From assembly GCA_903837075.1 (NCBI GenBank), contig CAILTI010000029.1, forward strand, positions 1-39,225: 39,225 nucleotides of DNA, given 5' to 3'. Below are positions 365 to 36,806 of the stretch, in pieces (the first letter of the stretch is position 1; each line of letters starts with the position of its first letter). The position numbers were made by a program, and so were the translations under genes. The notes below the pieces were generated by a model. It saw only the letters and a program-made list of their open reading frames with translations. It was not told the DNA's origin and did no database searches. The DNA comes from an uncultured bacterium. Lineage in GTDB: Bacteria; Patescibacteriota; Minisyncoccia; Phycocordibacterales; PALSA-1337.

Positions 365-997
365 ATGAATAGCACGTTCACGTTGAGTCAGGGTGCCGGT
401 CAGAAACTGGAATTCGCATTCCAACGAAATGATGGTAATACAGCCGATTTGGAGTGGTTATCGACGGGCGACAACCTCAGGTCAGTCATCCAACTCGCAC
501 GAGGCGAAGCGGATCTGGGTCTCAAGGCTAAACCCGCTCTTGAGCCCGAGCCGGCGATCGACTCGATCATCCGTGTGGATCGTTCGATCCGCCCCACTTA
601 TCCAGACTGGGTGAAGACAGTGATGCATCCTGAATTGGAATCCATTGGCCCAGCTGAGTACGATATCTCACGAGTCGAGCAGTGGCTCCATGACGGCCAG
701 AAGGATGGGAAATGTATCGAAGGTAGCAAGATCTATGCCCATCTCAAGGAGACCTACACACTCAAGACTTGTCTAGGACTGTGTGACCTGAAGGTAATCC
801 AGAATAAAGGCACCGCCTTTTTCCGGGAGCACTTCAAGTACAAAGCAGTCTTCGCGTGGAAAGGGGTCGTGCGGAGCCGCGATGGCGACCTCCGCGCCCC
901 GTACCTCTACGATCTCGGCGACGATGTCGCCCTGTCTTGGTTTTGGCTCGGCAACGGCTGGTTCGACAGTGACCCGGCCCTGCGTCTCGCAAGTTAG
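365..997 (+). CDS. DGR target (variable) protein, 210 aa, C-terminal VR-encoded region, probably C-type-lectin-like fold
   Basis: Last 43 codons match the TR with adenine-specific substitutions; AAGGA upstream of the ATG; fold is inferred from typical DGR targets with a C-terminal VR. Confidence 0.9.
   Translation: MNSTFTLSQGAGQKLEFAFQRNDGNTADLEWLSTGDNLRSVIQLARGEADLGLKAKPALEPEPAIDSIIRVDRSIRPTYPDWVKTVMHPELESIGPAEYDISRVEQWLHDGQKDGKCIEGSKIYAHLKETYTLKTCLGLCDLKVIQNKGTAFFREHFKYKAVFAWKGVVRSRDGDLRAPYLYDLGDDVALSWFWLGNGWFDSDPALRLAS
866..992 (+). repeat. DGR variable repeat (VR), ending in an invariant GC-rich/IMH-like segment (974-992)
   Basis: 127-nt ungapped alignment to 1337-1463; 22 mismatches, 19 at TR adenines. 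Confidence 0.95.
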
Positions 998-1095
998 TAC
1001 TTTGGACTGAGTCACTTTGCACTTTCTGCACTTTGACCTTAGCTCTAAAAATCTGGTGGTATAACCACTCGGCATGGAATGAGCCGCTGACATTC

Positions 1096-1126
1096 AAAAC
1101 CCGAACGATGAGATCGTTCGGGTTTT
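1096..1126. terminator. Perfect 14-bp hairpin downstream of VR (terminator and/or DGR homing cruciform)
   Basis: AAAACCCGAACGAT-GAG-ATCGTTCGGGTTTT. Confidence 0.75.
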
Positions 1127-1140
1127 CTAATATTGAAATA

Positions 1141-1149
1141 TGCTATGAT
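1141..1149 (+). promoter_or_regulatory. Extended -10 promoter candidate for the TR RNA
   Basis: TGcTATGAT; predicted start near 1156 coincides with the first stem of the structured leader. Confidence 0.5.
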
Positions 1150-1155
1150 TATTTG

Positions 1156-1510
1156 CGGTAGTAGGTGAATACGCTGGCGGCCATGTGCTTCCGGCTACCG
1201 AATCCAGTATCCATAAACTGAGAGCGTCTGCGGCCAACCCAGTAGGTCATCCTACTGGATGAGACGCTAAATCAGATTCAATCCTGAGATCGCTAATGGC
1301 TTCGAGGGGTGGTGATATGGATGGTGTTTTGTATGTATCGTGCGGAACCGCAATGGCAACCTCAACGCCCCGTACCTCTACGAGAACGGCGACAATGTCG
1401 TCCTGAACTGGAATTGGCTCGACAACGACTGGAACGACAATAACCCGGCCCTGCGTCTCGCAACTCTCTTCATTTCTCTCCCTTTTACATTTTCGTAGAT
1501 TTGGGAGAGT
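1156..1510 (+). ncRNA. Putative DGR template RNA (structured leader, TR, 3' spacer hairpin)
   Basis: Stems 1156-1161/1195-1200, 1209-1215/1316-1322, 1223-1229/1262-1268, 1239-1246/1251-1258; TR 1337-1463; 3' stem 1476-1482/1503-1509. The 3' end is uncertain. Confidence 0.55.
1337..1463 (+). repeat. DGR template repeat (TR)
   Basis: 12 AAC/AAT codons in the VR frame; differs from VR almost only at adenines; next to Avd-like and RT genes. Confidence 0.95.
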
Positions 1511-1844
1511 TTTGTTTTGTAAGCTGTCCGCTCCAACCGCCGAGATTTTTGCCAATTTCCTCTAATATTAACGAAAGCGCAATGTATCGCTTGTCAATTA
1601 GCGACTTGGTTTCCCACAAGATCATGAGAAGTATTTTCAATGCATCTAGCTTCTTAATAGCCAACCTTACATACGGTTGCTTTTCGGTTGGACCGAGGAA
1701 GCTGGCTGCGGCGATTGCTTCAATGATTTCAACAAATAATGATTCAATCCTGAAACCGATTGAGTGTCTATGCAGTTTCGGTATGTCTTGATAATATGTG
1801 TACCAAAGCAAATATGCATCCTTCACTTTACTCAAAACAGGCAA
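1485..1844 (-). CDS. avd: DGR accessory variability determinant (Avd-like four-helix-bundle protein), about 119 aa
   Basis: Basic helical protein with IPKLHRHSIGFRI and EEIGKNLGGW, typical of the bAvd/four-helix-bundle family. Start uncertain: TTG 1844 gives the usual size, ATG 1916 would overlap RT. Confidence 0.8.
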   Translation of the reverse strand: MPVLSKVKDAYLLWYTYYQDIPKLHRHSIGFRIESLFVEIIEAIAAASFLGPTEKQPYVRLAIKKLDALKILLMILWETKSLIDKRYIALSLILEEIGKNLGGWSGQLTKQNSPKSTKM

Positions 1845-1875
1845 AATTCGTGCGGGGGGGGGTCCGATTAATAGT

Positions 1876-2895
1876 ATGTCTAGAATCCAATTCAACCATA
1901 CATACGATAGTATCATTTCTGTAGAGAATCTGCTCGGAGCATGGAAAGATTTTTTGAAAGGCAAAAAGAAGAGGAAAGATGTGCAGGAATTTGAACGCGA
2001 TCTGATGGCGAACATCATTTCATTACATAACGATCTGCAATCCAAGACCTACAAACATTCAGTGTACGAATTTTTCCGAATATATGACCCAAAACTGAGA
2101 GACATTCATAAAGCTACTGTGCGAGACAGGGTATTGCACCGAGCTGTGTACAGGGAGTTGTACCGATTTTTTGACAAAACATTTATAGCGGATTCATTTT
2201 CATGCCGGATGAGAAAAGGAACACATAAAGCTATTGATAGATTCAGGTCATTTGCTCGCAAGGCATCTCGTAATCATACAATGACAGTATGGGTTCTAAA
2301 ATGTGATATACGAAAATTCTTTGCATCGATTGATCAGAATATTTTGAAGGAGATAGTCAAACTGTATGTATATGACAGATACATCCGTAAATTGCTCTTG
2401 GAAATCACTAATAGTTTTTCGTCTGGTGAAAAAGGTGTCGGTCTTCCACTAGGGAATCTAACGTCTCAACTGTTTGTGAACATTTATATGAATGAATTTG
2501 ACCAATATGTAAAGCATAAGATGAAAGCAAAACACTACATACGTTATGCAGATGATTTTGTCATCATTTCACGAGATAGAGAATGGCTTTGTAATCTCAT
2601 TCCTCAAATTGGTGACTTTCTCTGGTACAGATTGAAGTTACGACTTCATCCTGATAAGGTCTCCATAGGAACTATTGCCGCTGGTGTAGACTATCTTGGC
2701 TGGGTAAGTTTTCCTGATCACCGAATAGTTCGTACATTGACGAAAAAGAGAATGTTTAGAAGACTTAAGGATGTTGATGGTAAAGTTGAGACGGTCCGTT
2801 CGTATCTCGGATTGTTGAAACATGGAAATGCCAAGATGTTACGAGATAAGGTCGAATCAATGAAAACTACCCATAAACGCCGAGACACAGTATAA
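1876..2895 (+). CDS. DGR reverse transcriptase, about 339 aa
   Basis: KCDIRKFFASID, GLPLGNLTSQ (DGR-type GxxxSQ), YIRYADDF, DYLGW; no maturase or endonuclease extension; ATG 1876 preferred over GTG 1798. Confidence 0.95.
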   Translation: MSRIQFNHTYDSIISVENLLGAWKDFLKGKKKRKDVQEFERDLMANIISLHNDLQSKTYKHSVYEFFRIYDPKLRDIHKATVRDRVLHRAVYRELYRFFDKTFIADSFSCRMRKGTHKAIDRFRSFARKASRNHTMTVWVLKCDIRKFFASIDQNILKEIVKLYVYDRYIRKLLLEITNSFSSGEKGVGLPLGNLTSQLFVNIYMNEFDQYVKHKMKAKHYIRYADDFVIISRDREWLCNLIPQIGDFLWYRLKLRLHPDKVSIGTIAAGVDYLGWVSFPDHRIVRTLTKKRMFRRLKDVDGKVETVRSYLGLLKHGNAKMLRDKVESMKTTHKRRDTV

Positions 2896-36400: not shown

Positions 36401-36800
36401 GGGGATGATCGGCATAGACAATCAACCGTTCCCGTTCGTGCGGTGCGAGCACCATTAACTCGGAGTCCTTCGAAGCTCTCTTGTAGAGCGTAGTAGGACG
36501 AAAATCTGATGGAAATTCTAAATGCTAAATCAACCGTTTCGCCGTATTTCGGCCAAAAGGACTTTGCATTCGCTCTCGTTTAACGAGGCCGTCCTTCTAT
36601 AGGGATCCTAACTATAGTGTGGGCGTAATAACGTGGATGTAGGGTAGTGTGTCTTCTCAACACATCACCTGAAATCTAGAGATCGTGACTGTGTGTTTCG
36701 CAATACTTTTAGCACAGTCATCAAACTTCAAGTTTTGCTAACATCGTAGATTCGTTCGACGAACATTGATTGCACGGCGGTTCGATTCCGCCCATCTCCA
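36401..36800 (+). ncRNA. ssrA: tmRNA
   Basis: 5' GGGGATG pairs with 3' CATCTCC (G3-U), T-arm GGCGGTTCGATTCCGCC, tag frame 36524-36583, directly after smpB; CCA not encoded. Confidence 0.93.
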
Positions 36801-36806
36801 CAACAC

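Follow-up and report, generated by a model that had tools for sequence, protein, structure and literature searches.

The 39,225-nucleotide (nt) contig CAILTI010000029.1 of an uncultured member of the Patescibacteriota, the whole of which is called the window here, carries a diversity-generating retroelement (DGR), and the interval 1141-1336 lies directly 5' of the template repeat (TR) of that element. This interval is probably the promoter and 5' leader of a self-contained DGR template RNA gene, the leader serving as a scaffold for the reverse transcriptase (RT) and its accessory protein Avd. DGRs are most abundant in the tiny-celled Patescibacteria (candidate phyla radiation, CPR). To our knowledge the mechanism of a DGR RNA is known solely from one Bordetella phage, in which the essential RNA lies 3' of the TR. 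A preliminary description of the window had drawn attention to a folded RNA at this position. It pointed at a real DGR RNA domain but drew the helices from a damaged copy; its observation is partly confirmed and its interpretation partly supported.

Firstly, the conservation of the leader was determined. Relatives of the RT were collected from genome contigs; 173 were found and the best 80, with an RT identity to the window of 55-71%, were kept as loci. Nearly all of these 80 are in genome bins of Patescibacteria, and a pair of TR and variable repeat (VR) was detected in 69. Iterated nhmmer searches with the window's leader (E<=1e-3) found a homologous leader of about 240 nt, directly 5' of the TR, in 71 of the 80 loci. 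Eight of the nine loci lacking a match have 517 nt of DNA or less upstream of the RT, and the ninth, L067, has a match that is weak (E 0.0015, filters off) and confined to model positions 81-231, in its 3' part. Among the relatives with enough upstream DNA, 71 of 72 carry the leader. It is on the strand of the RT in 70 of the 71 loci, with a script-defined 3' boundary 477-557 nt before the RT start in those 70; at L031:2670-2905 (minus strand) the RT is on one strand and leader, TR and VR are on the other. Of 151 genomes sampled from the phylum, 28 contain a match to a covariance model of the leader's 3' core (R1). At seven of the eight additional loci obtained with R1 an RT homologue is present about 480-580 nt past the end of the leader, and the eighth stops at a contig edge. 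In all loci examined the leader was found solely beside this DGR cassette, and the organism's own genome (730 kb, 77% complete) contains no second copy of leader or TR. Two variants were seen in passing. A second, partial copy of the 5' domain (domain I, model positions 10-86) is present at L014:2096-2196, about 1.1 kb upstream of the full leader, and 21 loci (eg L069, L057, L041, L077) have shorter leaders of approximately 160-200 nt, in which the model match begins at positions 41-110.

The leader was also considered as a coding sequence. The three plus-strand frames are stop-free in 0, 0 and 3 of 48 leaders, there is no conserved open reading frame, and this candidate was rejected. At gathering score, Rfam gave no leader match in the window or any of 12 homologue loci, and only chance-level rows appeared at E<=10 in window 1000-1900 and L005 1050-1600. 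An upstream DGR leader is not described in the literature searched, a search outside which the CPR survey of Paul et al. 2017 and the supplements of Handa (Table S3, Fig. S18) fall. The family appears undescribed, and the suggestion that this is a candidate new DGR RNA motif is borne out by its conservation, its covariation, the lack of an Rfam match and its absence from the literature searched.

The fold was derived from a MAFFT alignment of 47 full-length leaders (A1) by an unbiased mutual-information scan, and the scan and the pair counts agree on the same helices. Over 66 pairs in the 47 sequences, 89.8% of positions are paired compared to 70.8% in shuffles, and changes on both sides are seen at 56 of the 66 pairs. 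Covariation scores 0.620 compared to 0.252 in the shuffles, none of 500 of which reach it, and slid controls give 0.115-0.170. For the 3' core in 66 sequences (alignment A4) the corresponding values are 90.5% paired compared to 68.6%, with a score of 0.721 compared to 0.277. As judged by this covariation, the leader folds into a multi-helix structure, P1-P8. P1 consists of GG/CC and GGYG/YRCC around a UAGUA/GAAU internal loop, which we take to be loop-E-like, and the three helices of domain I are 88-92% paired, with 14 of 15 pairs changing on both sides. P2 and P4 are similar hairpins of 6 + 3 (about 9) base pairs (bp) with YAMG tetraloops, the tetraloop being UACG in 20/47 (P2) and 10/47 (P4). 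P3 (AGUAU/AUACU) and P5 (CUUCA, an A-rich loop, UGAAG) are nearly invariant. P6 has 11 bp, is 97.4% paired in the 66 sequences and changes on both sides at 9 of its 11 pairs; its 3' strand adjoins the TR, ending two bases before it. P7 is a short hairpin followed by GAAU or AAAU, one A and the U after it each being present in at least 90% of A4, and both P7 and the adenosines after it are kept across the 66 sequences. After P7 comes a conserved single strand, GAAUAMGAUWCAR, then the P8 stem with its internal loops, which covaries in the family, and a junction, GGUGG...GGA. The invariant columns are recorded in A4.

Taken alone, the window's copy would not have revealed this structure. The minimum free energy (MFE) of 1141-1336 is -62.5 kcal/mol compared to -57.7 +/- 4.5 kcal/mol in shuffles (z -1.07, 32 of 200 shuffles being as stable), and z is -1.18 for the minus strand; being no better than shuffles, the helices of the window by itself amount to no more than chance. 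The preliminary description had drawn four helices. All are present, and three of them occur in the MFE fold, CGGTAG/CTACCG being the exception, but none is backed by covariation as drawn. CGGTAG/CTACCG (1156-1161/1195-1200) is 71.3% paired in the family and 69.1% in shuffles, 67 of 500 attaining its score; for ATCCATA/TATGGAT (1209-1215/1316-1322) the figures are 64.5%, 63.8% and 155 of 500. Family-wide, ATCCATA forms the 5' side of a helix, P3b, whose other strand is missing from the window. AGCGTCT of the third helix (1223-1229/1262-1268) does contain the covarying 5' strand of P4, but AGACGCT is ambiguous as its original partner. The fourth, the hairpin CCAGTAGG-TCAT-CCTACTGG at 1239-1258, is specific to the window, a single homologue (L068) sharing part of the insert. 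The MFE values and the two helices devoid of covariation are what would be expected if the interval were an intergenic spacer with chance complementarity and no conserved RNA. That explanation retains almost no probability: 71 of the 72 testable loci have the leader and the remaining one matches weakly, and both partners vary at 56 of its 66 pairs. Conservation and covariation refute it at the level of the family.

The cassette in which the leader lies is laid out as follows.

365-997, plus strand: DGR target gene, 210 amino acids, no Pfam match (open reading frame list, translation, Pfam scan)
867-992, plus strand: VR, inside the target gene (alignment of TR and VR)
1096-1127, plus strand: GC-rich hairpin (stem 1100-1109/1113-1122) and then TTTT, probably terminating the target gene (read from sequence)
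1141-1149, plus strand: extended -10 element TGcTATGAT, no -35 box, predicted start near 1156 (sequence, homologue alignment)
1338-1463, plus strand: TR, with a conserved CGCAA at its end (BLAST against VR 867-992, tail alignment)
1464-1520, plus strand: conserved tail CUCUCUUCAUUUCUC, terminator hairpin 1476-1482/1504-1510 and UUUUGUUUUG tract (sequence, homologue tails)
1485-1850, minus strand: avd, encoding a bAvd-like accessory protein, convergent with the TR RNA (translation, Pfam PF22296)
1876-2895, plus strand: DGR RT, 339 amino acids (Pfam RVT_1, E 1.4e-21)

The order target, TR, reversed avd, RT is that of the B3 layout. The window has the TR/VR pair, an RT adjoining the TR and a minus-strand avd between the two; its RT is assigned to DGRs by the RVT_1 match and by relatives with TR/VR pairs, rather than by DGR-specific RT motifs. 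TR and VR of the window differ at 21 positions, 18 at TR adenines and 3 elsewhere. The avd frame matches PF22296 with E 1e-7 and 32.9 bits, which is under the curated cut-off of 40 bits, and its start codon is not fixed, there being TTG and GTG candidates near 1850. Reverse-strand frames between TR and RT match bAvd in 69 of the 69 relatives scanned, so that avd is, as had been proposed, not upstream of the TR in the window or in any of these. The available text of the survey of Wu et al. 2018 (PMC5758913) names the TR-(avd)-RT arrangement B3 and reports it for 90% of CPR DGRs. The window shares its gene order and reversed avd; that text classifies genes and repeats, and no leader RNA, promoter or terminator is described in it.

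The extended -10 element noted in the window's sequence is present, and is conserved. All 49 full-length leaders have TAnnnT at the same aligned site, which precedes P1 by 7-8 nt; in 31 of them it is extended to TGnTAnnnT. No -35 box is evident, the best match in the upstream regions of the homologues being 4/6 at most, and a scan for sigma-70 promoter pairs does not list the 1141-1149 site. A hairpin and T-run equivalent to 1096-1127 is visible before the promoter in most of the homologue rows, by uncounted inspection. At the other end, the conserved tail starts directly after the CGCAA of the TR, and the hairpin and U-tract come next; a terminator (a perfect stem of at least 5 bp, then at least 5 T in 7) is present in 67 of 71 distinct tails. 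The terminator of the TR RNA overlaps the last avd codons on the opposite strand. The conserved C-terminus of Avd (...GGW.GQL.KQNSP) is encoded antisense to the terminator 3' arm and U-tract (window 1485-1520, and tails of relatives), and protein and terminator therefore constrain each other. Promoter and terminator of its own, both conserved in place, are the marks of an independent small-RNA gene. On sequence grounds, the upstream terminator, -10 box, leader, TR, tail and terminator form a self-contained gene, and the proposal that the TR is transcribed as an independent non-coding RNA holds for the family. The folded 5' domain of about 180 nt proposed with it is real in the family, but its canonical length is about 240 nt, and the window's copy is internally deleted.

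Assembled RNA libraries give a hint of a leader-TR transcript, from a relative of the window. In a wetland RNA library a 325-nt contig with a depth of 367.6 (the other contigs there have depths of 6-23) contains leader and TR of a relative in one piece. Its leader portion aligns with 1187-1215 and its TR portion with 1339-1449, the gap being 162 nt compared to 123 in the window. A second contig shares the 5' part and continues into canonical P4/P3b sequence. No contig of the RNA-library run covers 1467-1700, a result which is uninformative on transcription there. A discrete TR transcript has a precedent in Trichodesmium, where, in the text available, the DGR is reported to give an abundant stand-alone TR transcript of 265 nt (PMC6596454). 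As far as that text goes, the TR is in both cases a discrete small RNA rather than just part of an operon transcript. The cyanobacterial RNA is from another phylum and, at 265 nt compared to the approximately 430 nt predicted here, would leave far less room for flanking RNA.

The leader is complementary to the RNA on the far side of the TR. Just 5' of an invariant GG is a leader strand with the consensus AAAUGAAGA-UAC-UUG (AAAUGAAGAUACUUG), complementary to CAA-CUC-UCUUCAUUU, ie to the last three bases of the TR (CAA) and the tail. In a fixed register of 16 positions, 71.3% of positions are paired in 69 distinct leader-tail pairs compared to 62.3 +/- 0.8 in shuffles, with 117 compensatory cells compared to 47.4 +/- 7.3; neither value is reached in any of 2000 shuffles, and slid controls are 40-47.5% paired. 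The mean duplex energy of cognate leader and tail is -7.01 kcal/mol compared to -5.14 kcal/mol for non-cognate combinations, and none of 20000 permutations reach the observed mean. Examples are GUGAG with CUCAC (L050), AACCAAAGA with UCUAUGGUU (L043), AGGAGA with UCUCCU (L034), AGUA with UACU (L025 and L077) and UUUGUU with AACAAA (L041). The short-leader subgroup of 21 loci has AGUUGG where the main group has ACUUGG, and so pairs with the AACU of the tail without the C-C mismatch of the main group. P6 begins at the next base after the tail-pairing strand, on the same strand. With the leader-tail duplex at the 3' end of the TR and P6 at its 5' end, the TR would form a loop closed by two adjacent duplexes. 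The tail also resembles the 5' arm of P5, which would make P5 and the leader-tail duplex mutually exclusive, in the manner of a switch.

The RNA would accordingly be built as follows in our proposal. It would start about 7 nt after the extended -10 box and consist of the leader (about 240 nt), the TR (about 95-145 nt) and the conserved tail (15 nt), approximately 430 nt in all, ending at the intrinsic terminator that overlaps the 3' end of the antisense avd. The leader strand would pair with the 3' end of the TR and the tail; P6 would continue this duplex, its other strand being beside the 5' end of the TR, and the TR would be looped out between two stacked duplexes. As a scaffold, the leader would recruit RT-Avd and set the start and stop of complementary DNA (cDNA) synthesis. 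The switch-like relationship of P5 and the leader-tail duplex, and the terminator directly after the tail, could instead belong to a regulatory or stabilising 5' domain (a ligand or protein switch, or protection from ribonuclease) in which the leader-tail pairing controls termination or stability and the leader is no scaffold for RT-Avd; the lack of detectable homology to the Bordetella phage RNA would also fit. We regard this as very unlikely. The leader is present only beside this DGR cassette in the loci examined, the order of elements after P6 parallels that of the phage RNA one by one, and the TR is flanked precisely at either end by P6 and the tail duplex, a placement which template positioning predicts and stability does not need.

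The scaffold reading leans on the Bordetella phage BPP-1, the RNA of which, made up of the 3' end of avd, the TR and the spacer Sp, is described in a preprint (bioRxiv 10.1101/2023.10.23.563531); the following is taken from the part of that text available, and the published RNA positions were checked on the phage sequence. Priming is from A56, within a stretch (Sp53-56) that base-pairs to TR118-121. Sp59-70 and the avd segment immediately 5' of the TR together make up a stop duplex of 11 bp. This duplex is followed by a short stem-loop, adenosines that are unpaired, 13 single-stranded nt named the 'thumb ring' and a stem-loop, interrupted by internal loops, to which the RT binds; Avd is bound by an 11-bp stem-loop with a UNCG tetraloop. 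Both RNAs are non-coding and surround the TR; that of the phage is needed for cDNA synthesis, a role that we infer for the leader. In the phage RNA, and by our reading in the family too, the TR is a loop between a duplex at its 3' end and one of 11 bp that has a strand immediately before the TR. Next in each RNA are a short stem-loop with adenosines after it, a lengthy conserved single-stranded stretch and a stem-loop interrupted by internal loops; each also has stem-loops with UACG-type tetraloops. The order here is tail-pairing strand, P6 5' strand, P7, GAA..., 12-13 conserved unpaired bases, P8, P6 3' strand and TR. By this architectural parallel, and no closer one, the leader series would be the phage series cut open elsewhere, ie circularly permuted, and the leader would do the job of the phage Sp and avd segments. 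The expectation that the leader replaces the avd-derived 5' segment agrees with this at the family level, where the 3' strand of P6, beside the TR, takes the place of that segment. P6 has 11 bp in the family, as has the stop duplex, but its 5' strand is lost or degenerate in the window; the stem-loop and adenosines beside the stop duplex would have their equivalent in P7 and the bases after it, P7 being present in the family and deleted in the window. P2, P4 and the terminator hairpin after the tail are candidate Avd-binding stem-loops, again by comparison with the phage.

There are also differences. Nearly all the structured RNA is 5' of the TR here, whereas it is between TR and RT in the phage; both strands of the 11-bp duplex are 5' of the TR; and there are a separate promoter and terminator and an antisense avd. 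Membership of the Rfam family RF03022 (Phage_DGR) was considered and rejected: the leader is 5' of the TR, the interval between TR and RT is occupied by the antisense avd, and RF03022 does not match at gathering score in the window or 12 homologue loci, or at E<=10 in window 1000-1900 and L005 1050-1600, although BPP-1, the positive control, scores 104.7 bits. Conversely, R1 gives one chance-level match to the BPP-1 cassette (4.9 bits, E 4.3), on the wrong strand. The available text of Weinberg et al. 2017 (PMC5737381) places an RT-10 motif between TR and RT of BPP-1, and guesses at other DGRs for other RT motifs; we take RT-10 to be RF03022, the Sp part of the BPP-1 RNA. Retrons offer a looser comparison. 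Their msr-msd RNA is also a structured non-coding RNA beside an RT, in which, according to the text available, a conserved guanosine primes cDNA from its 2'-OH (PMC8867640), and the invariant GG of the leader is a candidate for such a priming guanosine. The product of a retron is a multicopy RNA-DNA hybrid, not a mutagenised cDNA homing to a VR, and no retron family was matched in the Rfam scans of the window and 12 homologue loci.

The window's leader is about 45 nt shorter than the canonical leader of two relatives in the same genus, G017 and G024. Its parts are the following.

1157-1205, plus strand: domain I, with P1 (GG 1157-58/CC 1204-05; GGUG 1164-67/UACC 1196-99) and the P2 hairpin 1173-1195 (mutual information, pair counts)
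1206-1236, plus strand: 5' strands of P3 (AGUAU), P3b (CCAUAAAC) and P4 (CGUCUG), and the start of the P4 apical loop (alignments with same-genus and family sequences, pair counts)
1237-1268, plus strand: window-specific rearranged segment, with hairpin 1239-1246/1251-1258 and AGACGCU pairing with 1223-1229 (MAFFT alignment A2, covariance-model alignment)
1269-1323, plus strand: conserved single strand AAAUCAGAUUCAA (1269-1281), P8 (1281-1285/1306-1310, with an apical extension) and junction GGUGAUAUGGAUG (R1 match)
1324-1337, plus strand: P6 3' strand (GUGUUUUGUAU), adjoining the 5' end of the TR, its 5' partner lost or degenerate in the window (covariance-model alignment)

The family partners of P3b, and possibly of P4, are missing after 1206-1236. 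The segment 1237-1268 replaces the P3b 3' strand, P5, the A-rich loop and the main tail-pairing strand. MAFFT and the covariance model differ in the placement of the gaps and agree that the P3b 3' strand, P5 with the A-rich loop, the UGAAG part of the tail-pairing strand and P7 are gone; approximately 25-30 nt of other sequence stands where the P3b 3' strand, P5, the tail-pairing part and P7 would be. The tail of the window is canonical, and on reading the sequence nothing in the window's leader is complementary to it. DNA contigs with zero differences span 1158-1355 and 1030-1307 (from three lake runs of one study, which may be the source of the bin), so that the variant is real DNA and not a binning artefact. 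By alignment, the window's copy is a lineage-specific, internally deleted variant of the family leader. With P5, P7, the P3b partner and most if not all of the tail-pairing strand lost, the window's leader RNA is, on indirect evidence, probably impaired or inactive.

Part of the rearranged segment recurs elsewhere. The P4 apical loop of the canonical leader at L068:3220-3472 is enlarged by about 25 nt, an insert which has a 10-mer, AGUAGGUCAU, and a 6-mer, AUGAGA, in common with window 1241-1264 at equal spacing; the CCAAGUA of this insert is complementary to the UACUUGG strand of L068's own leader. The TR/VR differences were also compared. In 70 pairs, mismatches at positions other than TR adenines number none in 43, one in 20, two in 5, three in the window and eight in L074. 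L074, with 8 of its 24 differences of this kind, has the highest number of the 70 and a full-length leader match, and its DGR may be decaying. The RT homologue of the closest same-genus relative, G017 (L083, 2086-3068), aligns in two pieces overlapping by one base, which suggests a frameshift or a sequencing error.

The shortened leader could also be a working minimal form, in which P5, P7 and the P3b partner are dispensable and CCUACUGG-AUGAGACGC serves as priming strand and P6 5' strand. R1 aligns 1242-1339 end to end (31.9 bits, E 2e-4), a P6 of nine pairs can be drawn (AUG/UAU plus AGACGC/GUGUUU), UACUGG matches the UACUUGG of the family, the RT and avd frames are intact, 18 of the 21 TR/VR differences are at adenines, and the variant is fixed in the contigs of the three lake runs. 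Nevertheless we consider this form unlikely to be a working one. The nine bases making most of the leader-tail duplex (AAAUGAAGA) are absent and no complement of the tail takes their place, and P7 with its adenosines is kept across the 66 sequences of A4. AGACGCU pairs perfectly with 1223-1229 and CCUACUGG with 1239-1246, so that both would be sequestered in the window's fold. G017 and G024, both the same-genus relatives with a leader that were examined, keep the full form, and the window's mismatches away from adenines exceed those of 68 of the 69 other pairs.

Several observations weigh against a scaffold for RT-Avd with an impaired copy in the window. There is no detectable homology in sequence or structure to the Bordetella phage RNA, and protein contacts and priming are argued by parallel with that phage. 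The covariation is silent on P3 and P5, these being nearly invariant. The shuffles disregard relatedness among the sequences, and their counts overstate significance and are not probabilities; for that reason the argument is carried by the slid controls and by the many pair types, up to six per pair. Three leader and two tail anchors were set by hand before the leader-tail count. The RNA contig is from a relative, contigs are blind to transcript ends, and RNA libraries can contain DNA. As for the window, its three mismatches away from adenines are weak evidence of decay, and the intact frames and adenine bias imply that the element was active in the past and that the deleted leader may still work.

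Beyond the scaffold, a more specific proposal is offered tentatively, as possible rather than probable. B3 DGRs would use a circularly permuted template RNA, with the priming, stop and RT-binding elements in the leader of about 240 nt. The invariant G where the leader-tail duplex meets P6 would prime through its 2'-OH, and the first templated base would be the G of CGCAA. The A-rich loop and P5 would be a switch competing with the tail, and the window would be a natural knock-out.

A few features elsewhere in the window were recorded. The only Rfam match at gathering score is a tmRNA gene at 36401-36803 on the plus strand (RF00023, 71.9 bits, full length). Positions 1-80 contain a long inverted repeat, CCAATATACCAGCGCATTTTC ... 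GAAAATGCTGGTATATTGG, as read from the sequence. A strong sigma-70-like promoter, TTGACT-16-TATAAT (11/12), is present at 160-187 on the plus strand, about 180 nt upstream of the start of the target gene, and a hairpin-like inverted repeat can be read at about 205-235, between that promoter and the gene.

The collection of homologues, which had been named as part of the check on the preliminary description, gave a leader in 71 of 80 loci, and their alignment gave covariation in support of the family's helices. The conserved, covarying leader is a concrete and testable RNA for the commonest CPR DGR layout, with a defined promoter, a terminator and a tail complementary to one of its strands. Which of its parts are needed could be asked with the window's internally deleted copy, a variant provided by nature. 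If the permuted scaffold is true, the boundaries of a minimal CPR DGR RNA would be at hand for reconstitution or engineering. Surveys limited to 40 nt before the TR and 100 nt after it, the extent of the screen in the available text of the Handa preprint (bioRxiv 10.1101/2023.10.23.563531), would then miss the leader, and the RT-Avd-RNA particle would be one that tolerates a different connectivity of its RNA.

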